Shown: positions 23,306 through 56,978 of the stretch, piece after piece
How the letters are laid out: each line of letters begins with the position of its first letter
Position numbering within the stretch: position 1 is the first letter of the stretch
IMG/VR virus record: IMGVR_UViG_3300020179_000033
Location: 1 to 60,561 of that record
Source: a virus
Lineage: Duplodnaviria; Caudoviricetes
Strand: one strand, 5' to 3'
Length of the DNA stretch: 60,561 nucleotides
Program-made: the position numbers and the translations under genes
Notes under the pieces: model-generated
Seen by the model: only the letters and a program-made list of their open reading frames with translations
Told to the model about the DNA's origin: nothing
Database searches by the model: none

Positions 23306-26300
23306 ATGCTTGACTCTAGTAGATATATTGACGAAAGAATAGCTAATTCAATAACATCGTCAGATAGGTCAGACTTTCCTGTTGATCAGACTAGTCCTTT
23401 AACGTTTCAAGAATGGTTAAAGTATAATAATACTCTATTTACTAATACAGATGATTTTCTTGTAAGATATCAATCTTATTTAAACAATTGGTATATATCT
23501 AAAAATTTTAATACTACACAACATGAAGATTCCATAAAGCAAATGTATGTTTTGCTTATCAATGAAATAGTCATCTCGTACACTTCATCTGATGAAAAGA
23601 GATGGTTGAAAAATATAGACTTTAATAATCCTAAAGATTTGGCTGTAGCTATTCCTTTTTTTGCGCAAAAAATAAAAGACATATGTCTTTATTATAGCAC
23701 TTTAAGAGATGATGTTAGAACTGCAGAGCTTAGATATAGTCTTAAAGGTTCGAACTATGGTATTGAGAAATTAGTTTATAATGAAATTTCTAAATCATTA
23801 GAAACTGAAGATTTAACTGATCTTATTAGAACGCTTTCTCTTTCTTTATCTAATGTTAGAAATAATTTAGTAATTGAAATAGAAGATTTATATGATACTT
23901 ACCCCTCATACCTTGATGTAAGCTATAATAAACCAGCATCAACATACCAAGCTACCGGTACTAGAAAGGACTATTTTAATTATAATCAATATAACATTGA
24001 CCCACAGATTTCGATTGATTTCAACTCAGCAATTGTTTCTGCTATAACATCATATCCTTTCTTTTTAATAGAATTGGGCTCGAATAATTTTAGCATAACA
24101 CCTCAAGTAGGTGCATCTGATTTAAATCTATTAAAAGATAGTGACTACATTAATACAGTTAATAATGAACAAGAATCAAATTTAAATATAAATCTCGAGC
24201 AATTACAATTAGAAAAATTTATAGGTACTGATTTTTATTACCTTTCTACCGGATCTACTAAAAGCGCTTATGTGTCTGGTCTACTCGCTATTTCAAACAA
24301 CCCTTTTGCAAATTATCTTAATAAAAGATACCCTGCTGTTGCTGCTATACCCGAAACTAGCTTTATTAAAACAGCAAAACAGATAGGGCTATTTTTTAAA
24401 CCCGATAAGCTTGGTATCTCTAATTTTAACTGTTTTGGTGTACAGAGTTTTATAGATACTAGCGCATTAAGTGCAAATACATTGTACGTATTTCCTGATC
24501 CTTCAAAATATGGTAATATATCAGGGCTTTCACAAGAAGAATTTAATTACCCACTGGTAATTTTAGAAGATAACTATTTAAATAAAGTAGATTTTTCCAA
24601 TCAATATATGTTTGGTGAAAGCGATACAAGCCCCTACCTTCAAACATTTAGAGCGTACGAAAGCAGAGAACAGTCACTGCAATTACCTACGCAAGGTTTA
24701 TCTAGATATATAGATGCTCAGGACTTTTTTAAAGGAGATATACGTTCAATATGGTCTAATGAAGATATATTTCCTATTATACCTAAAAATTATTTTCCAA
24801 TTGAAAGCAGATTGGAAAAACTATATTCTATTGATCAAACACTCGTAACTTATAAAACTGATATATATGGAAATAGCTATAGTTTATACAAAAATATACA
24901 CCCTGCAAAAAAACTAACTAATACATTTAATTCTAACGAAGGAGAATTATTTAAGTACTGTAAAATATTAAATGGTTATTCTTTTTATGACAATGTGTCG
25001 GGGTATAATTTTGACTGGACGGAAGAAGACCCTTCTAGAGACTATTCTGGAGTAATATTAAAAACAACAACAAACATTCCTCCAGGTACAGGGTATTTTA
25101 CTAGAGCATCTTCACTTACAGGCGTTTCTCCGCTGTCGGCACAATACTACAACAATGGTATACCGTTATTTGCACTTTCAGGAACAATTACTCCTATTAT
25201 ATCTTATAGATTTCAACCAGAAACTTTTTGCTCAGAAACATTAGTAACTAGGTTTTTGTGCAATACTTTTGATTGTGTTGAGTTTAAGGGCAAAGGGGGA
25301 GTAGCTCTTCCTGATGTTTGCTCCGATCTACCCTCTTATAATGCAGAAACAGACGATTTATATTATACCGACTTAATTGATAGTGGAGCATCGCCTACAG
25401 GCCCAGATTTTAGACCGAATTTTGAGCACCCACCAATCTTTACATATACACCCTATTTTACAGCAGTAAAAAATATTGAAGGTGGAGCTTACTTGTTTAA
25501 CGGTGAACAGCCCTGCGGAAGTATAGTTGCTACTAGAAAAGTTGTATATGCAGAAAAAAATAACTTTTTAGATTATAAATTACCTAACAGAAATACTTTA
25601 GTAATTGAAGGAATTAGTGGTGCACCTTATAAGAAATCTTTATATGAAGTAAAATTTAAGGAGTACGGTACCGGTTACTTTAGAGATTCAAACTCCCTAC
25701 AGATCGTCCCGCTTTCTACTGCACTTAGTGGAATTTATACTAAATTTAATCAAGAAATACTTGCCGAACTAAATACAAAACTTATTAATTTCGATGTCTA
25801 TTACGATACCGTACAATTTGAAACAGAAAATTATTTAATTCTTGATAAAATTAAATTTGATTATAATACCAATTTAATAGAAAATGTTACTAAATCAGAT
25901 GCATATTTCTTTAGAGGAAATAATATTAATTTTGAACATATTTCTACTGTTTGGTTTAATGAATTAAAAGATACATTATTCTTTTGCAAGATGGTGCTAT
26001 ATCCTTCTTTAAGCGCAACTAATAAAAAGATAATTTATCCTGAAATTTATACGGTAGACTCTAAAAATTTAAATGTAACTAAACTATACCCACCAATTCC
26101 AGATAGCACTCTTGATGCGGAATACCTTTCTCAGTTTTCTCTATCTGGAAAAAACATAGAGCTTAATATTGTTGAAATTGAAAAGCCTATACTTACGTTT
26201 GATTATCAAACAGAAAGCTTTGTAATTACATATCTAGGTAAAGACCCAGCAAACGTATTTTATGTCTTTAAAATTTACTTTAAATATGTAAACGGTGTTA

Positions 26301-26446
26301 TAACTAATATTAATAATTTTATGTATAAGCTAACACCAGATGTATTTTCTAATAATTTCAATTCTGTGTACCCATACCAATATTCTACATATAATGTAAT
26401 AGGCAGCTCTGGTGTAATAAATGGTATATTCAATTTTGGCCTATGA
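23306..26446 (+). CDS. Large hypothetical virion/baseplate protein
   Basis: 1046-aa ORF with a late promoter, in structural gene context. Confidence 0.6.
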
Positions 26447-28167
26447 TACAAGATTATTTTTTTACCCCTAATAACAAAACATCTATAGTTTTCTTAGATA
26501 AAACTATTGATACTGCAAGAGACTATATTATAACTTTCGACTACTGCTGCTACGGTCCGGGTGTCTCAGGTTCAGAGGGATTTAGTTTGTTTTTCGTTGA
26601 CAATCAAGTAGCTAATATACAAGGAGGGGGTATAGGACCCGGTTTAGGCGTAACTGCATTAACTGGTTTATCCACACTACCACCATTTGGATTTCCTCAA
26701 ATTAAAAAATTTCCTGGTGTAGCAAAGACAAATTTTGTAATAGGTTTTGATGTAAGTGGGTTTTTTGGTTCCGATATTTTATTTTTAGATGGTAATTTTT
26801 ATCCTCAACCCAATACTATTTCTATAAGAAGCGGTTCGCAAGATAATTTTAAACTACTTTACACTACTGCCAATCTTTCATCTTCAGCATTCTCAGAACC
26901 TTTTAATCTATATCAACAATCAACTACGGGCGATGTCTATAAAACTTTTAGAATTAGAATTACTAATTTAGGTAAAACTGTAGTTGTAGATCACAAAAAC
27001 ACTTCTTCTAACAAATTTATAAACTTATTCTCTTATAATTTACCTAATAGTGCGCCTGTTTCAGTATTTCCTGCTCTGGGGTTTGGTAGAGGTCCTTCAG
27101 AGATGTTTTTAAGAGTAAAAAATATAAATGTTAACGGATTTTTCTTAACACCAACACCTACCTGCACCGTTACACCAACAAACACTGTCACACCTACTGT
27201 TACACCTACAAATTCTGTAACACCGACAAACACTGTTACACCTACAAGAACACCTACTATAACACCGACAAACACTGTTACACCTTCTATTACACCTACT
27301 ATAACACCGACAAACACTGTTACACCTTCTATTACACCTACAGAAACCGTCACGCCTACAGTTACACCAACTGAAACCGTCACACCTACAGTTACACCAA
27401 CTGAAACCGTTACACCGACAATTACACCTACTGAAACAGTAACACCCACTATAACACCCACCACTACAATCACACCTACCAACACAGTTACACCTACAAG
27501 AACACCTACTATAACACCTACAATGACTAAAACACCTACTAATACGCCTACCAACTCTGTTACCCCTACAATAACACCTACTAACTCAGTTACACCTTCA
27601 ATTACGCCCACGATGACTAAAACACCAACAAATACGCCTACAGTTACAGTCAGTCCCTATGTAGCAAGCTTTGCTTCTAATCAAACTAGTATTACTATAC
27701 CTGCTGCTGGTCAAGCAAGTGTTTATCCTATAACATTTACTGCTAATACTACTGTTGCACCTTCAAGAGTCATATTATCTCTTAATAATTTTAACCATTC
27801 TTCACCTTATGATCTAGGAATGTTACTAGTATCACCTAACAACATAAATTGTTTGGTAGCAGGTAAAATACCGTTTGATCCAGATGATCCTCAGCCTGCA
27901 GTTAGCGTCTATGTAACACTAGATGGTACAGCGTCAACACCGTGGAATGCATATTCATCCGGTACTTTCGATACAAATTACGACCCAACAAAGACTTTCC
28001 CATTCACTTCCCCTGCACCTGCAGGGCCATATAATAATACTTTAGACGTGTTTAATGGTATTACTGCTGGAAACGCTACAGGAACATGGAGACTTTATAT
28101 ATTTGACTTTACTTCTGGCGATACAGGCTCTCTTGCAAGTGCTACTCTAAGTTTCATATACAGTTGA
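26443..28167 (+). CDS. Legume-lectin-like domain + Thr/Pro stalk + proprotein convertase P-domain protein
   Basis: ITFDY...EGFSLFF...GPGLG...IGFD (L-lectin-like); about 170 aa of TPT repeats; [14 protein letters not shown]...FNG...GTWRLYIFD...DTGSL (P-domain). Confidence 0.7.
27148..27657 (+). repeat. Coding Thr/Pro low-complexity tract
   Basis: Degenerate TPT(E/N)TV and TPTI units. Confidence 0.95.
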
Positions 28168-28192
28168 TAATGGATTTACAATAGTATATAAT
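28164..28192 (+). promoter_or_regulatory. Sigma70-type promoter of the glycosyltransferase cluster
   Basis: TTGATA-17 nt-TATAAT; an alternative TGGATT-16-TAAAAT ends 6 nt before GTG 28205. Confidence 0.55.
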
Positions 28193-28204
28193 TAAAATAT
28201 ACTT

Positions 28205-29446
28205 GTGAAAATATTCATTTCTATTGCATCGTATCGAGATCCAGAACTACTACCAACAATTAGAGATTGCATTTCAAATGCAAAACACCCCGAAAATTTA
28301 AGATTTGGCATTGCATGGCAAAAAGATGAAAAAGAGACATTAGGTGAGTTTGCAACTGACTCAAGATTTAGAGTTATTGAAATACCTTATCAAGAAAGTA
28401 AAGGAACATGTTGGGCTCGTAACGCAATTCAAGAAAAATATGATGGAGAAAAGTATCATTTACAGCTAGATAGTCATCATCGCTTTATAAAGCATTGGGA
28501 TGTTGAATGCATTCAAATGATAAAAGACTTACAGGATAGAGGACATAAAAAGCCATTGCTTACTGGTTATATTTCTAGCTTTAATCCCACTAATGATCCC
28601 GCTGAGCGGATTAATGTACCGTGGAAGATGAATTTTGATAGGTTTATACCGGAAGGTGCAGTATTCTTTTTACCTGCTTCTATTGATGATTTTAAGACAC
28701 GTTCCTTACCGGTACCAGCAAGATTTGTATCTGCACATTTTATTTTTACACTAGGCAAATGGATTAAAGAAGTACCGTACGATCCGTTTTACTACTTTCA
28801 TGGTGAAGAAATTAACCTTGCAGTAAGATCTTATACATGGGGATATGATTTATTTCACCCTCATAAAGTTGTAGCGTGGCATGAATATACACGCCGCGGT
28901 AGAACTAAACACTGGGATGATATTAAAGACTGGGTTGATATGAATAACAAGTCTCATCTTCGTAACCGTAAGTTATTTGAGATGGATGGTGAAAAGAAGG
29001 ACATAAAGTTTGGTAAATATGATTTTGGTAAAAAGAGAACAGTAGCAGAATACGAGAGATATGCAGGTATTTGCTTTAAAAAGAGAGCAGTACAAAGATA
29101 TACTCTAGATTATAATTACCCACCTAATCCAGAAGACTCAAAAATGTCTAATGAGGAATTTGATAAATCTTTATTGAGGATTTTTAAGCATTGTATCGAT
29201 ATTCGTTATGAACAAGTGCCTGAAAAGGATTATGATTTTTGGTGCGTTGCATTTAAAGATAAAGAAGGTAAAGACGTTTATCGTAAAGATGCTGATAAAG
29301 CAGAAATCGAAAGAATGTTTAACGATCCTGACAAATATTGTAAAGTTTGGCGTGAGTTTAATGCAGAAGGCTTACCTCATAGCTGGATAGTATGGCCTCA
29401 TAGTGTTTCTAAAGGTTGGGCAGACCCTATAACCGGTAATTTATAA
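28205..29446 (+). CDS. GT60-family polypeptide N-acetylglucosaminyltransferase (Skp1 Gnt1/Gnt2-like)
   Basis: IFISIASYRDPEL, SKGTCWAR, LQLDSHHRF..HWD, FVSAHFIF, EVPYDP..YFHGEE...AVRSYTWGYDLFHP, AWHEYTR. Confidence 0.88.
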   Translation: MKIFISIASYRDPELLPTIRDCISNAKHPENLRFGIAWQKDEKETLGEFATDSRFRVIEIPYQESKGTCWARNAIQEKYDGEKYHLQLDSHHRFIKHWDVECIQMIKDLQDRGHKKPLLTGYISSFNPTNDPAERINVPWKMNFDRFIPEGAVFFLPASIDDFKTRSLPVPARFVSAHFIFTLGKWIKEVPYDPFYYFHGEEINLAVRSYTWGYDLFHPHKVVAWHEYTRRGRTKHWDDIKDWVDMNNKSHLRNRKLFEMDGEKKDIKFGKYDFGKKRTVAEYERYAGICFKKRAVQRYTLDYNYPPNPEDSKMSNEEFDKSLLRIFKHCIDIRYEQVPEKDYDFWCVAFKDKEGKDVYRKDADKAEIERMFNDPDKYCKVWREFNAEGLPHSWIVWPHSVSKGWADPITGNL

Positions 29447-30417
29447 TGTTAAAAATTGCTTTTCATGACAATAATTTATGTCTAAGAGGGTCGTCTGTAG
29501 CTTTATATCAATACGCGCATTATAATGAAAAAATATTGGGTAATAAAAGTTATGTCCTGAGTTGCCCAACAGCTAATCTAGATGCTTTACCTAAATTTAA
29601 GGAACGTTTCGATGTACATTTAGCTCATTTTCATGATCATACACCTTTTTTAGTACAAAATAAGATTGATTATTTGTATGTTATAAAGGCAGGTGGTGTT
29701 GACGGTGTAGCAATGAGTAATCCACCGACACTAGTACACGCAGTTTTTTGTTCTAAAACACCTCATGGTCATAGATATGCTTATGTTTCAGATTGGCTTT
29801 GTAAAGCTATGGGATTTGATGTTGAAAAGCATTCTGTACCCCATATTGCTGAGCCTTTACCTTCCCCAGCATATTCTTTAAGAGAAAAATTAGGTATATC
29901 TCCTAATAAAAGAGTATTCGGCTGTTATGCAGGGTTTACTGAATTTAATATTACTTGGGTACAAGAGTTAATATGCTATTTAGCAGCTGAAAACCCAGAT
30001 CTTGTTTTTATGTTTATGAATATAGAGGATTTTAGATTTAGATGGCCAAATGCACCTACTACTACGCATAATAATATTATTTTCTTACCCGGTACTTATG
30101 ATATGCATGAAAAAGCTGCATTTGTGAATGCGTGTGATGCGATGATTCATGCTCGTGGAGGAGGTGAAACGTTTGGATGTGCTGTTGCAGAGTTTAGTAT
30201 GGCTAATAAACCTGTGATCACTTACGGTGAATCAGGTGAACGCAGTCATATAGAGTTGCTTGGTGAAAGAGGTATTTTTTATAAAACACCGGATGAACTT
30301 AAGGATATATTCTTAAATTTTCCTAAATATGTTAAATATGATGATTATTATAAATCATATGATTGCTGTAGCCCTGAAATTATAATGGAAAAGTTTGATA
30401 AAGTATTTTTAAAATGA
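29446..30417 (+). CDS. GT-B glycosyltransferase (GT4-like)
   Basis: RGSSVALYQYA; LREKLGI; FVNACDAMIHARGGGETFGCAVAEF (E-x7-E motif). Confidence 0.85.
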   Translation: MLKIAFHDNNLCLRGSSVALYQYAHYNEKILGNKSYVLSCPTANLDALPKFKERFDVHLAHFHDHTPFLVQNKIDYLYVIKAGGVDGVAMSNPPTLVHAVFCSKTPHGHRYAYVSDWLCKAMGFDVEKHSVPHIAEPLPSPAYSLREKLGISPNKRVFGCYAGFTEFNITWVQELICYLAAENPDLVFMFMNIEDFRFRWPNAPTTTHNNIIFLPGTYDMHEKAAFVNACDAMIHARGGGETFGCAVAEFSMANKPVITYGESGERSHIELLGERGIFYKTPDELKDIFLNFPKYVKYDDYYKSYDCCSPEIIMEKFDKVFLK

Positions 30418-31253
30418 AAAATAAAATTTTAGTCAGTGCAATTTGCTTTGTTAATAGAAAAAAACCTGGAGCTGAAATTTATGCTACATTTACACGTCGT
30501 TTAATTAATGATGTAATGGTTAAATCACCCTATGATGTAAGAATTGTAACTAATGAGCCAGATCATTTTAAAGAAGATTTAGATAAATGGGGTGAACGAG
30601 TAACAATAAAGCACGATGATTTATCAAAAAATCAATTAACTGTAGGTCCCTTCAATCAGAATTTAAAATACAAGACATTAGAAAATATACCTGAAAAGTA
30701 TCATTGGGTATTATACTTAGATTGCGATGCGGGTTTTACAGATGTGCTGGATGTCACAGAAATTGATTCACATATTGAGCATTGGGAAAAACAGGGTTAT
30801 GATATGCTAGCAACTAGAACTAATTGTACAGTTCTTGGCGAGCTTCAACAATATAAAAATTGGGAACAAGACCATCAGAATGAAATAGCTAAAGGTAATA
30901 CCAGTCATTGGTACCAAGGGGGGCTATTTACTAGAAAATTTAATTTTTATAATGTTACACTTGAAAACGGTCCTGTAGAATGGTTTGATGCTATTTTACC
31001 CAGTGAGCATGTTTTTTTAGTTAAAAATAACAACAAACTCGCAAAAATGGCTGAAGAATTTGAAAAGCTTAATCAAAAGTTTGAAACTCAAGTTACACTG
31101 CCCTACATTGTTACTTGGGATATGGAAGCATTTGAAATAGGCGTTTCTGCTAAAATAGCCGGCTACAATATTGGTGATTTCGATAACTACGGTCTTTATC
31201 ATGTTATAAAAGTGGTATGTAATCATAATAATTGGGAAAAAGTTAAATTTTAA
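30414..31253 (+). CDS. GT-A fold glycosyltransferase (family unresolved)
   Basis: RIVTNEP...FNQNLK...WVLYLDCD (DxD motif); cluster context. Confidence 0.65.
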   Translation: MKNKILVSAICFVNRKKPGAEIYATFTRRLINDVMVKSPYDVRIVTNEPDHFKEDLDKWGERVTIKHDDLSKNQLTVGPFNQNLKYKTLENIPEKYHWVLYLDCDAGFTDVLDVTEIDSHIEHWEKQGYDMLATRTNCTVLGELQQYKNWEQDHQNEIAKGNTSHWYQGGLFTRKFNFYNVTLENGPVEWFDAILPSEHVFLVKNNNKLAKMAEEFEKLNQKFETQVTLPYIVTWDMEAFEIGVSAKIAGYNIGDFDNYGLYHVIKVVCNHNNWEKVKF

Positions 31254-31255
31254 TT

Positions 31256-32164
31256 ATGAAGTCAGTTCGTCTTAGAGCTTCTTGGACGAGTGATGAAGAA
31301 ATACTTAAGAGAATTCTCTTACAATTTAAGACATCTGATGAAGACGTTTCAGGCATTAATTTTGTTTTTGATGATAGCTATGATATAATAGTATTTTTTG
31401 GATACATTACAGGTGATATTAAACCAGGAACAAAAGCTTATGTGTTTCCACAAGAACCGTCCTGGTCAGGCGGGCATCCTAGATATTTTAGCGAACATAA
31501 TGGTTTAACTGTATTTGGATACGATAAAAACCTCTATTCAAATCCTAATGTAGTAACTGAAAGCATGAGTTATATGTTTTATGGCGGCAGAGGCCCTACA
31601 TCTGAAGGTTATGATCACTGGACATACGACTTTATTTCAAACTATAATTTTATTAAAACAAAAAATATAGGTTGCTTGATATCTACCTTGGGTACTGATG
31701 ACAGTGAAAAACCACCCGGGTGTATCTATAAAAAACGTATTAAACTAGTAGATCACCTCATAGAAAATGCTAGTTTTATAGATATTTTTGGGCGAAATGG
31801 AGATAAACCTAATTTAAAAGGAGATGCATTGTACAAGTTTGACGGATTAAAAGACTATAAATTTTCTATATGCTGTGAAAACTCTAGTGAAAAGAATTAT
31901 ATTAGTGAAAAGTTTTTTGACTGTATTATTACAAATACGGTACCTATATATTACGGTTGTAAGAATGTTGAAGACATTGTTCCAAAAAACTCTTTTATTT
32001 CTATAGATGTTGATGATTTAGATAGTACATTAAAAAAGTTACAATATGTTAGTGATAACTGTGACAGCTTGTATAATGAAATGCTACCTAATGTTATTAA
32101 GACAAAAAATATGTATTTTAATGACTTTAATATACTAAAAACAATAAAAAAGCTTTGTAACTAA
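31256..32164 (+). CDS. GT10 alpha-1,3/4-fucosyltransferase-like protein
   Basis: YKFSICCENS...NYISEKFFD...TVPIYYG is the GT10 motif; also QEP. Confidence 0.88.
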   Translation: MKSVRLRASWTSDEEILKRILLQFKTSDEDVSGINFVFDDSYDIIVFFGYITGDIKPGTKAYVFPQEPSWSGGHPRYFSEHNGLTVFGYDKNLYSNPNVVTESMSYMFYGGRGPTSEGYDHWTYDFISNYNFIKTKNIGCLISTLGTDDSEKPPGCIYKKRIKLVDHLIENASFIDIFGRNGDKPNLKGDALYKFDGLKDYKFSICCENSSEKNYISEKFFDCIITNTVPIYYGCKNVEDIVPKNSFISIDVDDLDSTLKKLQYVSDNCDSLYNEMLPNVIKTKNMYFNDFNILKTIKKLCN

Positions 32165-32211
32165 TACTTTACATATTGAAGCTTAAGAATTTTAAAATAT
32201 ATATTATATAA

Positions 32212-33159
32212 ATGACAAAAGTGGTTATTCATCAACCTAAAAATTTTGAAAGTAGATATTATCGCTATTATAATTTTTTATTTGATGGATTAGCAAATAA
32301 AATAAAAGAAAATTTTGATTGCCTTGAAGCCAGGTATTTTAAGCATGCAAATGAGACAAGATACCCAGTCAAACTAATGTATGATAAAGAATCAAGAAAT
32401 TCAGATAGTACTTTATTGCTAGAGTGTGAAATGTTAATTGAAAATCACGAAACACAAGAAGTTATAGTGCTTTCAGTTTCAGATGATCTTACACATGCTA
32501 TCCTTACAAATTACCCACATGTAAAAAAAATCTTAATATCACAATTTGAAAAAAATAAAATAAAATCGCACCTGTATAATGGTCAGGATTTCAGAAATTT
32601 TCATCCTTGGGTTTATTTTCCACAAAATATCTATGATTACGACCTATACTATACAAAGCGTCAAGAATTACCCGGATTGATAGATAAATTTTATTTTAGA
32701 GGCACTTCATTAGAAATTAGGGCTATCTTGCAAGGGTTCAATCCAAAATACTTTGAAGGCGGCTTACCTATAGGAGGGTTTGAAACATACGCATCAGATA
32801 TTATTAATTATAAAATCGCTTATTCGACTGCGGGTAGAGGTGAATTCTGTTATAGAGATATAGAGAATATGGCAATGGGTATACCTATATTACGTTTTGA
32901 ATATTCTCATGAAATGAACCCACCCCTTATACCTAATTTTCATTATATTTCTGTTCCTAGACCTTCAATAACTACTGAACATCAGCTTACACCTGATCAT
33001 GCACCTTTAATTGAAAATAGATTTTTGGAAGTAAAAGACGACAAAAACTTTTTAGATTTTATTTCAAAAAATGCCCGGGAATATTATGAAAAGTATATTA
33101 AATTAGATAGTTGTATACAACACACCTACAATCTAATGGAAATTGAACAATGGAAATAG
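32212..33159 (+). CDS. Glycosyltransferase, GT90/CgeB-like (GT-B C-terminal domain)
   Basis: KFYFRG...GRGEFCYRDIENMAMG...LIPNFHYISV...ISKNAREYY. Confidence 0.65.
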   Translation: MTKVVIHQPKNFESRYYRYYNFLFDGLANKIKENFDCLEARYFKHANETRYPVKLMYDKESRNSDSTLLLECEMLIENHETQEVIVLSVSDDLTHAILTNYPHVKKILISQFEKNKIKSHLYNGQDFRNFHPWVYFPQNIYDYDLYYTKRQELPGLIDKFYFRGTSLEIRAILQGFNPKYFEGGLPIGGFETYASDIINYKIAYSTAGRGEFCYRDIENMAMGIPILRFEYSHEMNPPLIPNFHYISVPRPSITTEHQLTPDHAPLIENRFLEVKDDKNFLDFISKNAREYYEKYIKLDSCIQHTYNLMEIEQWK

Positions 33160-33782
33160 AAAAGAACATAAGTAAAAAAGTAGATCTCGAAAAAAATGAC
33201 GGCTTATCCGGGTATCTAGGATTTGCCTGTCAGCAGCATCATGGTATTTATAGAGTTTTTTATGATTTTTTAAACGATGTAAAACCTAGTAATATTTTAG
33301 AAATTGGAACAGCTCTTGGCGGGTTTACTCAATATTTAAAATATGTTAATGATCTGATAGGTAATACTGATTGTAGAATTTTAAGCTATGAAATTCACTA
33401 TCAAAACTGGTATGAAGATATGAAAGCGCAAGGTATAGATGTTAGGGTTGAAAATATATTTTCTACTGATTATTCTGAAGTTAAGCCAGAAGTCATTGAT
33501 TTTATTAGGTCACCGGGGACTACTATAGTATTTTGCGATGGTGGTAGTAAAAAAGATGAATTTAATATTCTTTCATATTATTTAAAAAATAAAGATTTTA
33601 TTCTTGCTCATGATTATGGTTATAGTAGAGATATATTTCTTCAAACAGCACATGGTAAAATTTGGAATTGGTGTGAAATAATAGAGGCAGATATAGAAGC
33701 AGCTGTTTCAAGAAATAACTTAAAAGACTATAAAAATGAAATTTTTAATGAGGTTGCATGGACATGCAAAGCTAAAGTATGA
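33150..33782 (+). CDS. Class I SAM-dependent methyltransferase (CmcI / Methyltransf_24-like)
   Basis: KPSNILEIGTALGG, VFCDGG, ILAHD. Confidence 0.8.
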   Translation: MEIEKNISKKVDLEKNDGLSGYLGFACQQHHGIYRVFYDFLNDVKPSNILEIGTALGGFTQYLKYVNDLIGNTDCRILSYEIHYQNWYEDMKAQGIDVRVENIFSTDYSEVKPEVIDFIRSPGTTIVFCDGGSKKDEFNILSYYLKNKDFILAHDYGYSRDIFLQTAHGKIWNWCEIIEADIEAAVSRNNLKDYKNEIFNEVAWTCKAKV

Positions 33783-36097
33783 ATTTATTTGAAAAAATAA
33801 GACATTTTATTAACAGTAAAGTTGATGCTAGTATTATTAATGATGAACAAATTAGTTATCTGGTGTTATATTTAATAGAAGCTCTAAATGAAAAGCTCGA
33901 AGGCGATGTAGTTGAATTAGGTTGCTATGTAGGCGAATCTAGCAAATATTTACAAAAAACACTTTTAGAAGCTAAGGCTAATAAAAAACTATATGTTTAT
34001 GATTCGTTTGAGGGGCTCCCACCATTATCTAAATATGAAGAGCATACAGGCTGGACAGAGGGTGGGTTAGCAACTACAGAAAATGCATTAAGAGCTAATT
34101 TTGAAAAAAACAACTTACCTCTACCGACAATTACTAAAGGATGGTTTAAAGATATTAAACCCGAGCAACTACCTGAAAAAATATGCTTTGCATTTTTAGA
34201 CGGTGATTTTTATGATTCTATTTATGATAGTCTAAATAAAGTTTACGATAGAGTTGTAGAAAAAGGCTATATTTTTATTCATGATTATGATAGAAAAGAT
34301 TTACCAGGAGTAGCTGCAGCGGTTAACGACTTTTTTAATGAAAGACACTACACTTTTAATGTTGTAAAGTTATGTGATCAATTAGCAGTTATTCAAAAAA
34401 ATACACAGTTAGAAGTTGTCGAAATACCGAAATCGCCATATACAATAGTTACAGGTCTTTGGGATATTGGTAGAGATAAATTAACTGAAGGTTGGTCTCG
34501 TTCATTTGAACATTATTTAAAGAAATTAGAAGAACTTTTAAAAACTGATTTTAATTTAATAATTTTCGGTGATCCAGAATTAGAGCAGTTTATTTTTCAA
34601 CACCGTCAGCACTACAATACACAATTTGTTGCAAGGAGTCTGGATTGGATAAAGAAGATGCCATTTTATGATAAAATTCAAGAAATAAGAACAAATCCAG
34701 ATTGGTATAATCAAGCTGGTTGGTTAAAAGATTCTACACAAGCTAAGTTAGAGCTCTATAATCCGTTAGTTATGTCTAAGGTATTTTTACTTAATGATGC
34801 AAGTATTTTAGATAAGTTTAATTCTGAATATTTGTTTTGGCTCGATGCAGGTATTACAAATACGGTACACCCAGGATACTTTACACATGATAAAGTTTTA
34901 GATAAGCTGCCCGCACTATTAGATGATAAATTTTTATTTGTAAGTTTTCCTTATCCTGATGGTGGTGAAATACATGGGTTTACCCGTACAAAAATGAATG
35001 AGATAGCTAATACTTCAAACGTAGAGTATGTTAACCGTGCAGGCTTTTTTGGCGGGCCGAAATCTAGTATTGGTGAAATAAATGGAATATATTATTCATT
35101 ACTTAAGGACACCCTTTCTCAGGGGCTTATGGGCACAGAAGAAAGCATATTTACTCTTATGACATATTTACACCCTCAGCTGTTTAAACGGTTTATGATT
35201 GAGGCTAACGGTTTATTAGTAACATTTTTTGAAAACTTAAAAAATATTAAAGTTGAAAAAGAAGAAACAAAAATAGTAATTGGGGAAAACAATACCGGAA
35301 CGGGTCTTTATGTAATTGGGTTTAATTCCCCCAAACAATTTGAATTGCTATGCGAAAGTTATCTTACGCATTCGGGGTTTATACGCGATACCACGAATTA
35401 TCTTTTAAATAATAGTACAGATTTATCGCTTAACAAAGAATACATTGCTTTATGTAAAAAATATAATTTTGAGCATATTAAAAAGAATAATGTTGGAATA
35501 TGCGGTGGTAGGCAGTTTATAGCAGAGCATTTTGAAACAACAAATTTAAAGAATTATATTTTCTTAGAAGATGATATGACGCTAGTTGAATCACCAGGTA
35601 CAGTTTGTCGTAACGGCTTGGCTAGATATACAAAAAATTTATTTTTTAAAATTCATAAAATAATGGATAAAGAAAAATACGATTTTATTAAATTTTCTTA
35701 TTCTGAATTTTTTGGCGATAATGGTACGCAATGGGCATGGTATAACGTGCCACAGCCAATAAGGGAGAAATACTGGCCGCACTATAATAAATTACCAGAA
35801 ATTGGTACAGATCCTAATGCACCTAGAACTAATTACACTTGTATTAAAACGATTGATGGGTTAAGTTATCTAGAAGGTGATGTATATTATTGTAACTGGC
35901 CACAACTGGTTAATAGAGAAGGTAATAGAAAGATGTTTATTACAACTAAATGGGCTCACCCTTTCGAACAAACTTGGATGTCGCATATGTTTCAACTTAC
36001 AAAAGATAAAAAACTCAAGGGCTCGGTTCTCTTACTATCTCCGGTAGAACATAATCGCTTCGATCACTATAAAAACAATTTACGTAAAGAAAGCTGA
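33779..36097 (+). CDS. Three-domain fusion: TylF/MycF sugar O-methyltransferase + HtrL/YibB-like glycosyltransferase + GT-A (GT2-like) domain
   Basis: EGDVVELGCYVG, YDSFEGLP, KGWFKD, FLDGDFYDS, IHDY (TylF); TIVTGLWDIGR, YNPLVMSK, FWLDAG, MGTEE (HtrL-like); NVGICGGR, FLEDD (GT-A). Confidence 0.82.
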   Translation: MNLFEKIRHFINSKVDASIINDEQISYLVLYLIEALNEKLEGDVVELGCYVGESSKYLQKTLLEAKANKKLYVYDSFEGLPPLSKYEEHTGWTEGGLATTENALRANFEKNNLPLPTITKGWFKDIKPEQLPEKICFAFLDGDFYDSIYDSLNKVYDRVVEKGYIFIHDYDRKDLPGVAAAVNDFFNERHYTFNVVKLCDQLAVIQKNTQLEVVEIPKSPYTIVTGLWDIGRDKLTEGWSRSFEHYLKKLEELLKTDFNLIIFGDPELEQFIFQHRQHYNTQFVARSLDWIKKMPFYDKIQEIRTNPDWYNQAGWLKDSTQAKLELYNPLVMSKVFLLNDASILDKFNSEYLFWLDAGITNTVHPGYFTHDKVLDKLPALLDDKFLFVSFPYPDGGEIHGFTRTKMNEIANTSNVEYVNRAGFFGGPKSSIGEINGIYYSLLKDTLSQGLMGTEESIFTLMTYLHPQLFKRFMIEANGLLVTFFENLKNIKVEKEETKIVIGENNTGTGLYVIGFNSPKQFELLCESYLTHSGFIRDTTNYLLNNSTDLSLNKEYIALCKKYNFEHIKKNNVGICGGRQFIAEHFETTNLKNYIFLEDDMTLVESPGTVCRNGLARYTKNLFFKIHKIMDKEKYDFIKFSYSEFFGDNGTQWAWYNVPQPIREKYWPHYNKLPEIGTDPNAPRTNYTCIKTIDGLSYLEGDVYYCNWPQLVNREGNRKMFITTKWAHPFEQTWMSHMFQLTKDKKLKGSVLLLSPVEHNRFDHYKNNLRKES

Positions 36098-36105
36098 TAT
36101 TTAAG

Positions 36106-36111
36106 TAAATA
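36106..36111 (+). promoter_or_regulatory. Late promoter core TAAATA
   Basis: 5 nt before GTG 36117. Confidence 0.65.
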
Positions 36112-36116
36112 ATAAT

Positions 36117-38030
36117 GTGAACCTTGTTTTTTATAAGCTTTCAAGCGTCCAAATTCTTGAAAGACCTTATGTACTAAATGGCTATTTATTTGAAGACCCT
36201 GTTTACCCTGTTATAGTCTTTACTAATACTGCAACTGGTAGTTCGTTTTCTGCAACATCAGGTACGTTTGTTTACCCGTACTCTGCATATGGTGGTCAAT
36301 TTTTTCCCTGGGGATACGCTATTCAAAATACCTATTTAAGTGCCGATTTAGGGTTTTTTAAAGGTAATACCACACTTACGTTTATACCCTCAGCATTAAG
36401 CGAAGAGTATTATCCTGTCATAAAAATTATTTACGATTTTGATGATAATAAAATAATTACTGTTGATAAAAAGATAGTTCAAAACGATTTTGTTAATATT
36501 GTAAGTCTCGATCCTAGTTCGCCTATTGATAGTAATATATCACACATATATAAATTACCCGCTTCTGGCATTAATACATACTTCCCTTCTGTAACTGTTT
36601 TTAATGGCAATCTCGCTTTAAATAAGTTTGAATTTAAACTAACGCTTTATCCTGATACTATTTTTGATTTAGATGATTTTCATTTAATAAACTCCACACA
36701 ACTTGATGTTACAGATAATAAATTTAAAAGCTTAGAAATTTTACAAGTCGAAACTTTATCAACAACATATCTAACTCATTTCTGCCTCTTAAGTACAACA
36801 CCAAATTTTGAGCTTAATAGAATTTTAATTACCCCTTCTATCACACCTACACCAACGCTAACACCGACCATGACAGTCACACCGACAAGAACCCCTACAG
36901 TAACACCTACCAACACTCTAACACCTTCTATTACACCTTCCAATACTTTAACACCAACAGCGACACCTACAGAGACGGTTACACCTTCAATCACGCCCTC
37001 TATTACACCTACAGAGTCTGTCACACCAACGATTACTCCTTCTATTACATTAACACCGACGGTGACACCTACTATGGTTACCCCCACACCAACACCGACT
37101 ATTACACCTACAGAAAGTGTAACGCCTACAAATACACCAACAGAAACTCCAACAGAAACAGTTACGCCTACAGAAACACCTACAGAAACACCAACCCTTA
37201 CTCCGACAGAGACAGTTACGCTTACACCAACAATAACACCTACTCCCACAGCATCCCAAGCCGGCTTACCACCTACACCTACTATGACAGTAACCAAAAC
37301 GCCTAGGCCTACTGTAACACCTACTAATACAGTAACACCTACTAATACAGTAACACCTACTAATACAGTAACTCCTACAAATTCTAGAACACCTACCATT
37401 ACCCCTACTGTATCTCAAACAATGACACCAACACCTACAATAACACCTACCATTACTCCTAGTACTGCAGCTACAACTAACAATATATATGTTGAAAATA
37501 ACGGGTTTGAAGTTCCTAATTTAGGTGGTGGCCCCGGAGTACTGTACACACAAAACCCAGTAGACCCGGATTGGACGTTTGTTGGAAAATCGGGTATTGT
37601 TGCTAATACTAGTGTTCTTGGACTAGTAAATGCGCTAAATAAGAACGTAGAATCTGGCAGTCCCGTGTTCAGTACATTAGGTCAAGCAGCTTTCTTATCA
37701 GGCGGAAACGGATTAATTACCGGGGCTAGTAGTACATATTTAGAATATGGGCCTGCTACACTAAGTACATCGCTAAACGCTAAGATAGTATTTTCTTCTC
37801 AGACATCTAATCCAAGCAATGTTACTGTAACCGTCTCCGCTTATGATGGTTCTACATACTATAATCTTGGCTCATTTATACCTACGACAACTACAAGCTT
37901 TACTACACATATGTCGCCGTCTTACGTAACTCTGCCCGCAGGTTCTATTACCCTTTACTTTGTACATGATCCAGCTGCAAGCGCTGATATTACATTTATT
38001 GACACAGTGTTCTTACAGACTCCTATATAA
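36117..38030 (+). CDS. Virion protein: PKD-like N-domain + Thr/Pro stalk + carbohydrate-binding-like jelly-roll tip
   Basis: KIIYDFDD...SHIY; about 210 aa of TP repeats; NNGFEVP...WTF C-terminal domain. Confidence 0.6.
36831..37466 (+). repeat. Coding Thr/Pro tract, including an exact 18-bp tandem (VTPTNT) at about 37314-37372
   Basis: GTAACACCTACTAATACA repeated three times. Confidence 0.95.
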
Positions 38031-42978: not shown

Positions 42979-43806
42979 ATGAAATACGTGTTTAGTGTTA
43001 AGCAAGGTCAAGGTGTACAAAAAATTGTACCGGTTTTACCTACTGCCACAACGACTATGACACCTACACCCACTATTACACCTTCTATAACACCTTCTGG
43101 GTTTCCCACGCCTACTCCTTCTATTACACCTACTATTACTAAGACACCGACCATCACACCTACTATTACTAAGACACCCACTATTACACCTACTATCACG
43201 AGAACACCTACACGTACACCAACAACTACAAGAACGCCTACACCCACACCTACTGTAACACCACTAATACTTTTCAGGCAGCCGTTTAGATATCTCTTAG
43301 TTGGTTTTAACTTTAATGGTAATGATTTTGATGCTGAGGCCGCTGTAAACGATATTCCTGGCTATATAAATAACTATGTACCTGTAGGCGGTTGTCCCAA
43401 TCCTGGCGAAACAACATCTGTAGATTCGCTATCATATGGGGGTGATGTAAAGAGTTCTGTTGGCCAAGAGCAAATACTAATCGATCTTAGAACCTTAAGT
43501 GCTATAGCCATACCTACCACATCAGTGGTAAATATAGGATTGTCGGGTAACTGGTATACCTTATTTTCTATTAACCCTGCATGGTCATTTACATTATCAT
43601 TTAGCGCTATTAATGGTGGGGAAATGACTTGGGATCAAACAAATTATAAGTTTGATATAAGTGGTGGAACTGTTGTTGATACTAAGGACTTTGTATTCCC
43701 TGCAACCTCTCTGGCGAGTGGTCAAGTATGTACACCACCGTCTTATAAGTCTATATCTGAGTTAATTTATTACGTCAATATAGGTGAAATACAGGTAAAT
43801 TACTAA
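42979..43806 (+). CDS. Short N-peptide + Thr/Pro stalk + beta-rich tip domain
   Basis: About 75 aa of TPTITKTPT repeats followed by a globular domain. Confidence 0.65.
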
Positions 43807-43890: not shown

Positions 43891-44517
43891 ATGAATATAT
43901 TTAATAACGACAACCCTCACACAAATGGAGAAGTTGAACTAATTTCTTCTTTGCCTAAAAATCTTACTATATTTGATGTTGGTAGTAGGTCGGATAGTGA
44001 ATTTTTAAATTATGAAGGCGTTGTTCATTATTTTGAACCTGTGCCCGAATTTTTAGAGCGCTTAAAAACTTTTTCTAATAAAAACACAGAAAGTTATTTT
44101 AATAATTTTGGTTTATCTAATTTAAGTGAATCACTTTTTTATTATCCTAGGCATCAATCTTTTGTTAACAGATCAAGAGATTCAAAAAACGATAAAGTAT
44201 TGTTACAGCTCATGAAGGGAGATGAATACATTTTAAAAAATAATATATCTAAAATTGATTTTCTTAAAATAGATACCGAAGGGTTTGAATTTAATGTACT
44301 TAAGGGATTTGAAACCTCTATAGATTTAATAGACACTATTCAGTTTGAATATGGCGGTTGTTTTTCTGATAATAATATAACTTTAAATGAGGTTTGTAGC
44401 TTTTTAAAAACTAAAGGGTTTAATTTGTTTTATTATGTAGCACCAACTAACCCCGTTTTATTAAGCAATTTTTCAGACCATTATCAATATAGTAATATTC
44501 TTTGTAAAAGAAAATAA
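43891..44517 (+). CDS. FkbM-family methyltransferase
   Basis: IFDVG, HYFEP, NNFGLS, IDFLKIDTEGFEFNVLKG, IQFEYG. Confidence 0.9.
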   Translation: MNIFNNDNPHTNGEVELISSLPKNLTIFDVGSRSDSEFLNYEGVVHYFEPVPEFLERLKTFSNKNTESYFNNFGLSNLSESLFYYPRHQSFVNRSRDSKNDKVLLQLMKGDEYILKNNISKIDFLKIDTEGFEFNVLKGFETSIDLIDTIQFEYGGCFSDNNITLNEVCSFLKTKGFNLFYYVAPTNPVLLSNFSDHYQYSNILCKRK

Positions 44518-44519
44518 CT

Positions 44520-45674: not shown

Positions 45675-48464
45675 ATGAATAGTATAACTTATTTATCTGG
45701 CGGAACTACTGTTATTCTTTTTAAAGGCTATAATTTTGATTATACAAGGTTTGTATATCTAAGTACTACCAACGACAATAGTGAAGCATATAGTACAGAG
45801 ACAGTAGATTATTTTCCAGGTTCGTCGTTATACCCCGCATTTACAGGATTTAAATACACAGACTTTTCTATAGCAGAAAATATACTAACATTAAACGTAT
45901 CTAATTTATCAGGCGGTGGGTATTATGATGTTATTATATTTACTAATGCGGGATACACAAAGCTTTCAGATAACAATCTTTTAATAAACGCAAGTAATAT
46001 GGGTGCCTATGTTATTCCTACTCCAACACCTACAGCTTCTATAACACCCTCACCTACACTTACTCCAACAATTACCCCGACGATATCTATCACCCCCACT
46101 ATTACACCAACAGTAACACCCACTACTTCAATTACGCCTACTATAACACCTACTAAAACACTTACACCTACTTTAACTCCAACAAAGACCGCTACACCTA
46201 CTATTACACCTACTGAAACAGTTACACCAACCATAACACCCACTGTAACAGTTACATCTACTACAACCCCAACAAATACAGTTACTATTACACCTACAAG
46301 ATCTTTAACACCTACACCTACAAAAACAGTAACTATAACACCAACTGAAACTGTCACTCCAACTATAACACGCACTATAACACCTACTATTACTCCGACT
46401 AAAACTAACACACCAACTGTAACTCCAACCCCATCAATTACACCTACAGAAACTATTACACCGACTACTACAAAAACACCAACACCTACACCAACTATTA
46501 CTAAAACAATAACACCTACAGCTACAAACACCCCGACAGAGACACCCACTTTAACCCCTACAAAAACAACTACACCTACAATAACTCCAACAAAAACTAT
46601 AACCCCAACCATTACTAATACACCGGGTGCTTCACCCACACCAACAAAAACACCTACACCTACAAGAACATCAACACCTACAATAACACCTACCATTACA
46701 AAAACACCAACTGTAACACCATCACGAACCCCAAAAAGAACACCAACACCTACAAGAACTTCAACACTTACACCTACAAGAACTCCGACAACCACTATTA
46801 CACCTACAATTACACCTACAATTACGCCAACTGAAACCGTAACCCCTACAATTACGCCAACTGAAACTGTTACACCGACAACCACTATTACACCTACAAG
46901 AACTCCGACAAATACAGTTACACCTACAAGAACTCCTACAAATACAGTTACACCAACAGTTACAATTACGCCTACCGTTACACCTACTAATAGTGTTACA
47001 CCTACAATAACACCTACAACCACACCTACTATGTTTGTCTTTAATGTATTTGATGAAGCTAAGAATTATATAACACCTACACCTACAGTTACTGTTACTA
47101 TAACACCTACTGTTACTGTTACACCAACAGTTACTACAACTACAACACCTACTACCACGCCTACTGAAACTGTTACTCCAACAACCACTCCAACTATAAC
47201 TCCTACTAAAACTGTTACACCGACAATAACTCCTACCGAAACTGTTACTTCAACACCAACTATAACTCCTACTGAAACTGTTACTCCTACAGTAACGACA
47301 ACTACAACGATAACACCAACTATAACTCCCACTGAAACTGTTACTCCTACAGTAACGACAACTACAACGATAACACCAACTATAACTCCCACTGAAACTG
47401 TTACTCCTACAGTAACGACAACTGCAAATCTGTCACCCACGCCTACTGCAACCATGACACTTACACCGACGGAAACACCTACTACCACACCTACTGAAAC
47501 TGTTACTCCCACAGTTACTCCTACTGAAACAGTAACCTCTACAGTCACCCCTACTATTACCCCCACAGAAACTGTTACTCCCACAGTTACTCCTACTGAA
47601 ACAGTGACTTCAACGGTGACGCCTACCGAAACTGTTACCCCCACAGTTACCCCAACACTTACGCCTACTGTAACACCTACTGAGACTGTCACCCCTACAG
47701 TAACACCTACCGAAACTGTTACAACTACACCTACTACAACAGTTACACCTTCATTAACTCCTACAGAAACCGTCACTCCAACTGTTACTCCTTCAGTAAC
47801 AGTTACACCTACAATAACACCTACTGTGACGCCTTCTAAATTTGTCTTTAATGTATTTGATGAAGCTAAAAATTATATAACACCTACAGTCACGCCTACA
47901 GCTACAGTAACACCTACTACCACTACAACTGTTACGCCTACAGTAACTCCTACAGAAACCGTCACTCCAACTGTTACGCCTACTAGTAGTATTACGCCTA
48001 CAGTAACTCCTACAGAAACCGTCACTCCAACTGCAACGTTAACGCAAACACCGACTACAACACCTACTATTACTCCGACTATTACCCCTACAAATACAAG
48101 TGTACCGACATTTGCTTTTGAAAAGACATATGCATGCCCAGTGCCTCCTGAATTACAGTTCCAGCCCTCTGCAAGTGACCCTACATATATTGGAATACAG
48201 TATCAAGGTACTTGCTCATCTCCAAACACCTATCCATCTAAAGTCGGTACAACAGTATTTCAATCTAATTCTGTATTTGGACCTATATATTGCTTCTTAG
48301 ACGGTAATTTAAAAACGCTGATTAAGAAAGACGGTATTATCAGTAATTTAAATATTTTCTATGTAACGTTTAATGGTGATGCTACCCAAACTAAATACTA
48401 TGCAAGGCTTGTTGCTAATAGCTATTACTACTTCGTTACGGGGGGTGATTATTGGCCGGTTTAA
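45675..48464 (+). CDS. Mucin-like virion protein: Ig-like N-domain + about 700-aa Thr/Pro stalk + Cys-containing tip
   Basis: N-terminal [13 protein letters not shown]; very long TP tract; TAAATA at 45653. Confidence 0.75.
46017..48107 (+). repeat. 2.1-kb coding Thr/Pro tract, including a near-exact 60-bp tandem (about 47252-47423)
   Basis: [20 protein letters not shown] repeated about three times with near-identical DNA. Confidence 0.95.
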
Positions 48465-56705: not shown

Positions 56706-56978
56706 ATGGGCAAAGAAATAATTACACAACCTCAAGAATTTAAAGATCTAGGTATTAGCGCTGAAAAATTTTATTCTTCAGGAGGCAACAATTATGTAAA
56801 TATTAATATAGGTGATATTTCTTATTCTTTACAAGTTATAGTACCTACACCGACAGTCACACCGACTGTCACTTTAACACCAACTCCTTCTATTACTCCA
56901 ACTCCTTCTATTACTCCAACAGAAACAGAAACCCCTACCCCGACACCAACACCAACAATTACCCCAACACCTCAGTAA
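56706..56978 (+). CDS. Small protein with a terminal Thr/Pro tail
   Basis: About 46-aa N-domain followed by about 44 aa of PT repeats and no tip domain. Confidence 0.65.
   Translation: MGKEIITQPQEFKDLGISAEKFYSSGGNNYVNINIGDISYSLQVIVPTPTVTPTVTLTPTPSITPTPSITPTETETPTPTPTPTITPTPQ

Follow-up and report, generated by a model that had tools for sequence, protein, structure and literature searches.

The DNA analysed here, which we call the window, is a stretch of 60,561 bases comprising the entire IMG/VR record IMGVR_UViG_3300020179_000033, and our subject is an island of seven enzyme genes within it, led by a gene for a GT60-family glycosyltransferase (GT) and bordered on either side by a gene for a protein with a long threonine/proline (Thr/Pro) tract. 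The window is a fragment of the genome of a T4-like myophage, a distant one. Among its products are the tail sheath and tail tubes, a tape measure, baseplate wedge proteins that resemble gp25 and gp6, and a tail fibre of 1538 residues; a dUTPase and a clamp loader are also encoded. The sheath and baseplate proteins share 24-38% identity with those of the nearest named phages. The island sits within the baseplate/fibre module with the tract genes TP1 and TP2 on either side, and all genes from TP1 through TP2 lie on the plus strand, packed or overlapping at gaps of -10 to +47 bases. Because soluble sugar-adding and methylating enzymes are here flanked by fibre-like proteins with Thr/Pro stalks, the phage probably sugar-coats its own appendages. 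The genes and features are as follows.

23306..26446, plus strand: p23306, a conserved 1046-residue structural-module gene, first in the operon that contains TP1 and located after the gp25-like/gp6-like baseplate genes
26443..28167, plus strand: TP1, with a lectin-like N-terminal domain, a stalk at residues 226-409 (27118-27669) and a P-domain-like C-terminal domain
28164..28192, plus strand: sigma-70-like consensus match TTGATA-17-TATAAT (putative promoter), in the 37-base gap upstream of the GT60 gene
28205..29446, plus strand: GT60-family glycosyltransferase, the proposed initiator (PF11397, 'GlcNAc')
29446..30417, plus strand: weak GT-B / GT4-like glycosyltransferase (PF00534, Glycos_transf_1, at 25 bits, below the cut-off of 26.4; phrog_2170 at E=1.7e-4)
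30414..31253, plus strand: GT-A fold glycosyltransferase, GT8-like, with a DCD motif (no Pfam match; Atlas structure rows PF01501, TM 0.61-0.63)
31256..32164, plus strand: GT10, fucosyltransferase-type (PF00852, E=2.7e-16, 60.2 bits, cut-off 23.9)
32212..33159, plus strand: Glyco_trans_1_2 / GT90-like candidate, a lead only (no Pfam match; Atlas features)
33150..33782, plus strand: CmcI/FtsJ-like methyltransferase (PF04989 at 21.1 bits and PF01728 at 22.8 bits, both below cut-off)
33779..36097, plus strand: 772-residue three-domain fusion (TylF, residues 1-206; HtrL, 221-490; GT-A-like, 508-772)
36117..38030, plus strand: TP2, with a conserved N-terminal domain, a stalk at residues 226-460 (36792-37496) and a beta-sandwich C-terminal domain

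An earlier, sequence-only reading had placed seven enzyme genes at 28205-36097 between two Thr/Pro-repeat genes (26443-28167 and 36117-38030), with four more such genes downstream. All nine genes proved to be open reading frames (ORFs) at exactly these coordinates, and the count of two flanking and four downstream genes is correct, since we located five large tract ORFs and a sixth ORF of 90 residues. With a tract defined by 30-residue windows of at least 50% Thr plus Pro, 5 of the 43 window ORFs of at least 100 residues qualify, besides the 90-residue one. The tracts of the five large ORFs span 1433 codons (42.6% Thr, 19% Pro), and a DNA-level search of the window for TPTxTPT gives 96 matches, all on the plus strand, against 0 for the backwards control.

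Co-occurrence of GT60 and Thr/Pro tracts

The identity of the lead gene is secure, its product matching PF11397, which we take to be CAZy family GT60, at E=1.3e-71 (242.3 bits against a cut-off of 21) and phrog_24687 at E=5.5e-166. Co-occurrence of GT60 with Thr/Pro tracts across related phages had been set as a check by the sequence-only reading, and we looked for it in relatives chosen neutrally with respect to both traits, by an alignment query of p23306 that found 165 relatives in IMG/VR, of which 80 loci were kept (a search with the single protein gave 6 loci only, and the alignment query was used instead). Whole contigs were searched for PF11397 and TPTxTPT in 50 of the 80; the other 30, mostly short or truncated contigs and including several Thr/Pro-positive truncated loci, were dropped after an earlier look at the data.

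The co-occurrence is present. All 21 contigs with GT60 carry tracts (8-106 TPTxTPT matches), while among the 29 without GT60 there are 21 with 0 matches, 2 with 2 and 6 with 3-94, these six being 25-53% complete and one of them stopping just past p23306. The difference (21/21 vs 6/29) gives a Fisher p of 5e-9, uncorrected for phylogeny. On a quick maximum-likelihood tree of the p23306 sample, the window's clade A (17 rows with both GT60 and tracts, and one truncated row) is sister to clade B (10 rows with neither, 90-119 kb contigs among them), clade D, with both traits, contrasts with clade E, with neither, and no row has GT60 without tracts. In two relatives that are 74-77% complete, GT60 lies not in the fibre region but about 40 kb from the tract genes. 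Among large GT60-bearing contigs of IMG/VR, 8 of 9 have 10-135 matches, at several loci.

A second lineage behaves in the same way. A GT60 protein search of 50,697 phage records returned four records only. The pattern search covered three of these, all cultured jumbo phages, and each has tracts (XacN1, 51 matches; Xoo-sp13, 51; RAS14, 22), whereas 0 matches occur in RsoM2USA and PA5oct, the closest relatives without GT60 as judged by a tail protein. RAS14 and CM1, both Stenotrophomonas phages, share the core genes. In XacN1 the matches fall in hypothetical genes, among them ORF369-372 beside the tail sheath stabiliser and the 3300-residue ORF325 near the GT60 operon. XacN1 virions gave at least two Schiff-stained glycoprotein bands, for which ORF328 and ORF334 were proposed as makers (PMC5852040; Suppl. 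Fig. S4 legend, with excerpts of the text); in those excerpts no band is assigned to a protein, and neither GT60 nor the glycoproteins are linked to Thr/Pro tracts.

GT60 also occurs in bacteria, and in a sample of 62 loci from a species-genome collection an HtrL partner adjoins it in 34. Given that high-GC (guanine plus cytosine) loci yield spurious short tracts, only tracts of at least 70 residues were counted here; 17 of the 62 loci have a Thr/Pro ORF of this kind, and in 14 of these 17 it lies within 1.5 kb of the GT60/HtrL block, the ends of which were approximated. The taxa belong to several phyla and include Cytophagales, the cultured Jiulongibacter sediminis, Arcticibacterium, Gemmatimonadaceae, Halieaceae, Verrucomicrobia, Rhodocyclales and Magnetococcales. 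In Jiulongibacter sediminis (L356:8944-9810, minus strand) and an Arcticibacterium metagenome-assembled genome, or MAG (L367:8648-9628, minus strand), the gene adjoining GT60-HtrL encodes a small protein, a candidate bacterial substrate, whose N-terminal segment consists of RRLA plus a hydrophobic stretch; it also has a Thr/Pro/Ser tract and, at the C-terminus, a conserved domain of about 70 residues. Separately, L361 and other short low-GC 'MAG' contigs among L340-L350 carry genes for phage structural proteins (homologous to 38039 and 41386) next to GT60, and such contigs are probably phage DNA binned with bacteria.

Enzymes, stalks and promoter signals

The DSH triad D89-S90-H91 is invariant across 33 aligned phage GT60 sequences, and the GT-A metal-binding D-x-H/D-x-D motif is thus kept; D-x-H is presumably the catalytic motif of the family. 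HGEE and WHE are likewise invariant, as are many other positions in an alignment with a mean column identity of 72%. The phage enzymes have an extra conserved C-terminal region of about 120 residues (292-413), and they are conserved far better than the adjoining structural proteins (in one relative, 72% identity for GT60 vs 33% for p23306). Among solved structures we found no sequence relative of GT60, and for none of the enzymes did a Pfam scan report a GT27-type or ricin domain; the comparison with mucin-type (GT27) initiation is functional only, an analogy.

With regard to the acceptor residue, no prolyl hydroxylase was found among the window ORFs, and in the relatives, where the search was limited to PF13640, this domain was above cut-off in 0 of 5 near-complete GT60-bearing genomes, one of which gave a sub-threshold match (24.3 bits). 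Given that PF13640 is wanting in 4 of the 5, Thr is favoured over hydroxyproline as the acceptor, and hydroxyproline, as used by the Skp1-type pair of PhyA and Gnt1, is made unlikely.

Of the enzyme families named by the sequence-only reading, GT60, GT10, TylF and HtrL stand above their Pfam cut-offs and the GT4-like and methyltransferase matches fall just under; the 'GT-A' and 'GT90-like' labels find no Pfam match, and their backing consists of Atlas look-alikes (TM 0.61-0.63 for the former; for 32212-33159, a feature score of 0.97 to clusters with PF13524, 83%, and PF05686, 37%). The GT10 match spans profile positions 19-128 of the 182 in PF00852. For the methyltransferase at 33150-33782, three CmcI-family cassette ORFs of relatives do pass the cut-off (24.5-32.5 bits), of which that of L002 alone is its homolog by tblastn.

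The fusion protein is the best defined of the companions. Its TylF domain (PF05711, E=3.9e-26, cut-off 23 bits) resembles the sugar O-methyltransferases NovP and MycF in sequence (phmmer; NovP at 1.3e-11) and matches the folds of MycF, NovP and SpnH in Foldseek (TMt 0.7-0.8; MycF 0.80). The HtrL_YibB domain (PF09612, E=3.1e-18, 66.8 bits, cut-off 24.1) is modelled as a nucleotide-sugar-transferase-like alpha/beta domain, and E597-D598-D599 is invariant in the C-terminal GT-A-like domain. In the structural model (43 sequences in, mean pLDDT 88) the HtrL and C-terminal domains align jointly to two-domain GT-A enzymes at Foldseek E-values of 1e-11 to 1e-8, among them the chondroitin polymerase K4CP, LARGE1, LH3, ColGalT1 and mimivirus R699; differences in domain orientation keep the whole-chain TM scores low. 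In relatives the HtrL protein comes in two sizes, about 770-785 residues with the TylF domain and about 550-580 without it. Taken together, and as far as sequence can tell, the family assignments allow the extension, fucosylation and O-methylation that had been proposed.

An IMG/VR scan for GT60 relatives gave 188 stretches, of which 80 loci of 61-87% identity were kept. An HtrL partner lies within 10 kb of GT60 in 65 of the 80, and the order p23306-TP1-GT60-cassette-HtrL-TP2 is kept in 20; L001 is the only locus with all seven enzymes in common, and megablast of the island against the 50,697 phage records found nothing. The interval between GT60 and HtrL ranges over 1.5-5.8 kb and 2-8 ORFs (36 loci). 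Since the genes in this interval vary among relatives, GT60 and the HtrL-GT form a fixed core around a swappable tailoring cassette. A Pfam scan that covered 124 of the 152 distinct cassette ORFs (those of L001, L008, L013, L018, L036, L066 and L068 being left aside) matched 51 of them, with transferases that modify sugars (4 carbamoyltransferases, 9 FkbM and 3 CmcI methyltransferases, 2 sulfotransferases), further GTs (7 GT10, 3 GT25 and 5 PLOD-type, plus GT2, GT7C, GT31, GT34 and RXYLT1-like), a HAD-nucleotidyltransferase fusion and a separate HAD hydrolase. Enzymes that transfer carbamoyl, sulfo, methyl or fucosyl groups would carry out the kind of tailoring that exposed glycans typically show.

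The tract genes downstream of TP2, and a further methyltransferase gene that lies among them and is possibly an eighth tailoring enzyme, are the following.

42979..43806, plus strand: TP3, an N-terminal tract (43006-43305) and a C-terminal domain
43891..44517, plus strand: FkbM-family methyltransferase (PF05050, E=1.2e-13)
45675..48464, plus strand: TP4, 929 residues with a 721-residue tract (45990-48152)
54450..56693, plus strand: TP5, four globular segments with three Thr/Pro linkers between them
56706..56978, plus strand: TP6, a 90-residue ORF with a Thr/Pro tract as its C-terminal half

TP4 holds 48 of the 96 TPTxTPT matches; its tract is broken twice by one identical short non-repeat island, at residues of about 453-468 and 722-737. 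Relatives of TP1 share an N-terminal domain of about 225 residues with a GFSLFF...GGxPGPGLG signature, the resemblance of which to lectins is our own reading of the sequence, followed by a stalk of 164-461 residues and one or two C-terminal modules ending in NGTWKLYIxDF. This module resembles a proprotein-convertase P domain in sequence, and TP1 itself has a weak match to PF01483 (E=0.0018, below cut-off); some relatives bear other distal domains in its place. Relatives of TP2 share the N-terminal 225 residues; some end there, some continue into a short tract, and others have a long tract with differing distal domains that we read as P-domain-like or RCC1-like repeats. The fold matches of the TP2 tip to carbohydrate-binding modules are weak (E of about 4e-4 and weaker), and Pfam matched none of the terminal domains in TP2-TP5. 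Fibres attached to a baseplate would be expected to have this layout, in which the anchor is conserved, the stalk varies and the tip can be exchanged.

The sequence-only reading had further assigned sigma-70-type promoters to the enzymes and late promoters to their substrates, and this holds in part. A sigma-70-like element like that upstream of GT60 recurs at the same place in 25 of 69 distinct relatives, vs 1.0% of random windows, and the hexamer TAAATA lies within 30 bases upstream of 14 of the 37 plus-strand genes, vs 2.8% of random windows; the genes so preceded include TP2, 45675, 38039 and 23306, the head of the TP1 operon, where it stands 5 bases upstream of the start, and 0 of the 7 enzyme genes. 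Sites of the sigma-70-like class, taken as a whole, are not enriched in the region (101 sites vs 98.8 expected). We infer that the island is transcribed early, from a sigma-70-like promoter of its own, and the stalk genes late. The exact T4 late promoter TATAAATA, tried as a candidate, was not enriched (8 vs 17.8 expected). Ten start codons have TAAATA at a constant distance of 5-6 bases upstream (for example those of 2070, 4396, 17488, 23306, 36117, 38039 and 48502); if it is a T4-type late promoter the mRNAs would be nearly leaderless, and it might alternatively be a translation-start signal.

Several further observations concern the window itself. GC content ranges from about 0.28 to 0.42, with a strong negative GC skew over the repeat genes. 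Long Gly/Val-rich ORFs lie antisense to the tracts (27033-27611, 36776-37399, 46007-47023 and 47066-47776, minus strand); they are by-products of the repeat composition, which is seen too as GC skew down to -0.63. Six tRNA genes at 44519-45071 and 57397-58703 (minus strand) comprise Arg-tct, Ile-tat (95 bases, unusually long), Leu-taa, Met-cat, Thr-tgt and Glu-ttc; tRNA-Thr(UGU) reads ACA, which makes up 51% of the 611 Thr codons in the tracts. A paralogous pair of Gly_rich_2 genes (PF21722, phrog_2295) lies near the two ends of the contig, at 277-1374 and 58925-59944, and the right end also carries genes for an NADPH-dependent FMN reductase (58029-58622, minus strand) and a staphylococcal-nuclease-like protein (59952-60365, minus strand).

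Possible targets of the enzymes

We consider it fairly likely that the island is a phage-encoded, cytoplasmic protein O-glycosylation system acting on the phage's own Thr/Pro stalk proteins, a system known here from its genes alone. That GT60 and its companions act on these proteins had been the central proposal of the sequence-only reading, and it is now supported by comparison rather than chemistry, namely by the phage co-occurrence in two distant lineages, the bacterial adjacency, the synteny and the Schiff-stained bands of XacN1.

In such a system the enzymes would be expressed from their own sigma-70-like promoter, and GT60 would move an N-acetylhexosamine (HexNAc) from a host UDP-sugar onto Thr hydroxyls of the TPT repeats in the late, fibre-like proteins, the sugar being, by family analogy, alpha-N-acetylglucosamine. 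The HtrL/GT-A fusion and the variable enzymes would lengthen the glycan chain, GT10 would attach fucose, and the TylF, CmcI-like and FkbM enzymes would cap the glycan by O-methylation. The glycosylated stalks would keep the lectin-like or carbohydrate-binding-module-like distal domains away from the baseplate, and the variable cassette would endow each phage with its own glycan. The purpose could be stiff extended stalks, protease resistance or a phage-specific surface chemistry; mimicry of host surface glycans, also put forward by the sequence-only reading, would be a further candidate.

A number of observations weigh against this interpretation, and some of them favour other targets. Characterised GT60 enzymes are protist enzymes that glycosylate polypeptides, and the phage/bacterial clade lies outside them. 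That TP1-TP6 are parts of the virion is judged from gene order only, and the structural model of TP2 is poor (pLDDT 45.9), its tract being predicted without structure. The Schiff stain that revealed the XacN1 bands can also pick up co-purified polysaccharide. As regards the co-occurrence, the independent contrasts in phages number about three, most contigs are fragments, and host lineage could confound the association; one GT60-bearing contig (181 kb, 54% complete) has 0 tract matches.

The converse of the association is also incomplete. In an arbitrary sample of 47 IMG/VR contigs chosen only by a TPTxTPTxTPT match, PF11397 was found in 11; of the six with a completeness of 90% or more, one carries it. 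Phages with tracts thus show a strong enrichment of GT60, and the tracts can do without it, because complete tract-bearing phages that lack GT60 exist. In two of three GT60-less tract phages, no glycosyltransferase could be recognised up to 10 kb from the tract gene. In the third, an IMG/VR contig (L404:9103-19983), a gene for a LamG-lectin protein with a 683-residue tract is followed by eleven convergent ORFs without Pfam matches and one GT1, a block that may be another, unrecognised modification cassette.

Given such phages, and given that 43 of the 80 GT60 loci lack a tract ORF within 10 kb, one may ask whether the enzymes glycosylate other proteins, whether of the host or, as in mycobacteriophages, where glycans sit on capsid and tail-tube C-termini (as cited in PMC12619734), of the capsid and tail tube, with the tracts serving as plain unglycosylated linkers. 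On the other hand, GT60 tracks the tracts in the neutral sample, the bacterial tract ORF is an immediate neighbour, and neither a tract nor an evident acceptor extension is seen in the sheath and tube proteins of the window; we therefore regard this alternative as improbable.

A somewhat less improbable alternative, still unlikely in our estimation, is that the enzymes remodel the host surface during infection (lipopolysaccharide (LPS) O-chain, capsule or S-layer glycan), for example to block superinfection, and that their adjacency to Thr/Pro genes reflects insertion into a plastic region. The island looks like a moron, with a sigma-70-like promoter of its own, which would mean early expression, hypervariable content and a location in a plastic region, and the name HtrL_YibB comes from a gene in the LPS core region of E. 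coli. Host modification is moreover the published interpretation of similar clusters: pelagimyophage glycosyltransferases in the tail-fibre hypervariable region are read as modifying the host O-chain (PMC7029224), and the 13 glycosyltransferases of a cyanomyovirus as modifying the cell surface or DNA (PMC12801897). None of the seven enzymes is a membrane protein, a flippase or a lipid-carrier enzyme; in a hydropathy scan (19-residue window, Kyte-Doolittle mean of 1.6 needed) none of the eight enzymes, the FkbM protein of 43891-44517 included, has a membrane-type hydrophobic segment (maximum 1.22), and the membrane-embedded Gtr-type proteins (GtrA/GtrB/Gtr) that mark O-antigen seroconversion by phages are not among them. 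Host-surface remodelling would also leave the two-lineage phage co-occurrence and the bacterial adjacency with tracts unexplained. Characterised GT60 members act on polypeptides, and against this alternative stand also the Schiff-positive proteins of XacN1 virions (PMC5852040).

The third alternative, that the enzymes hypermodify phage DNA with sugars as a protection against host nucleases, we consider very improbable. Phage GT-A and GT-B enzymes do glycosylate 5-hydroxymethylcytosine DNA with diverse glycans, as set out in the main text of a preprint (bioRxiv 10.1101/2023.12.21.572611), and the GT60 operon of XacN1 lies near DNA polymerase and RNase H genes. However, PF11397/GT60 is not mentioned in that main text, no hydroxymethylase or dioxygenase was seen among the window ORFs (a 60.5-kb genome fragment), and seven GT domains and three sugar O-methyltransferase-type genes, together with the sulfo- and carbamoyl-transferases of relatives, exceed the DNA glycans described in it. 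The Thr/Pro link would again be left unexplained.

If stalk glycosylation is correct, mucin-like appendages with heavy glycosylation would be widespread in the large phages of water and soil (188 IMG/VR stretches with GT60), with a bearing on the host and particle binding of such phages, on their resistance to proteases and grazing, on why T4-like tail-fibre regions hold many 'LPS-type' genes that are now annotated as host-modifying auxiliary genes, and on the origin of mucin-type O-glycosylation. The idea is directly testable, since cultured phages carry the same core genes. More tentatively, GT60, its HtrL partner and the swappable cassette may constitute a widespread prokaryotic 'mucin-type' O-glycosylation module of bacteria and large phages, the phage version of which would be a methylated, fucosylated, carbamoylated or sulfated stalk glycocalyx under O-antigen-like diversifying selection, and the roots of eukaryotic GT60/GT27 mucin initiation might then lie among prokaryotes and viruses; we regard this wider proposal as possible, at somewhat less than an even chance.

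Comparison with known glycosylation systems

Virion glycosylation encoded by phages is known in kind; to our knowledge, it is only in mycobacteriophages that a phage's enzymes have been shown to glycosylate its particles, and XacN1 offers a hint of the same. For a GT60-led, mucin-like fibre-stalk system in T4-like and jumbo phages and bacteria we found no paper, nor did we find one that links GT60 or Thr/Pro tracts to phage glycosylation. In the mycobacteriophages (Freeman et al. 2023), as would be the case here, phage GTs are proposed to work in the cytoplasm of the host and to glycosylate structural proteins of the phage itself; the acceptors differ, being the capsid and tail-tube C-termini of siphophages there and candidate TPT stalks of a T4-like myophage here, with a GT60-led set of enzymes proposed from genes alone.

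XacN1 is the closest cultured parallel. It has a GT60 orthologue (ORF334, 47% identity), an HtrL-GT partner (ORF330, 41.5%), a cassette between the two that includes a carbamoyltransferase, and the 51 TPTxTPT matches. It differs in belonging to a distant lineage, in its Xanthomonas host and in the location of its island outside the fibre module.

Among the protist GT60 enzymes, Gnt1 of Dictyostelium and Toxoplasma acts on a hydroxyproline of Skp1, and others in Dictyostelium and Trypanosoma cruzi initiate mucin-type Thr O-GlcNAc glycosylation. The phage enzyme shares with these the PF11397 family and the invariant D-x-H, is predicted to be soluble like the cytoplasmic Gnt1, and has Thr/Pro-rich candidate acceptors. 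It differs in its phage/bacterial context, its C-terminal extra of about 120 residues and its fixed HtrL tandem-GT partner, and, from the Skp1 system in particular, in the want of a PF13640 prolyl hydroxylase in the near-complete relatives noted above.

The chlorovirus PBCV-1 and Mimivirus use soluble GTs and sugar methyltransferases, GT-methyltransferase fusions among them, to place methylated glycans on their own structural proteins, and the HtrL-GT part of the fusion has Mimivirus R699 as one of its neighbours in fold. In contrast to the present island, these are eukaryotic giant viruses with N-linked or fibril glycans, other enzyme families and no TPT-repeat acceptors. PBCV-1 is also cited in the XacN1 paper (PMC5852040).

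A further likeness, by analogy only, is to be found outside the phages. In the serine-rich-repeat adhesins of Gram-positive bacteria, GtfA/GtfB and accessory GTs glycosylate a long repeat stalk. There, as proposed for the island, a cytoplasmic HexNAc initiator and strain-variable extending GTs serve a repeat stalk that presents a distal binding domain, whereas the adhesin system rests on a GT4 GT-B initiator pair, Ser-rich repeats and accessory Sec export, and is not of phage origin.

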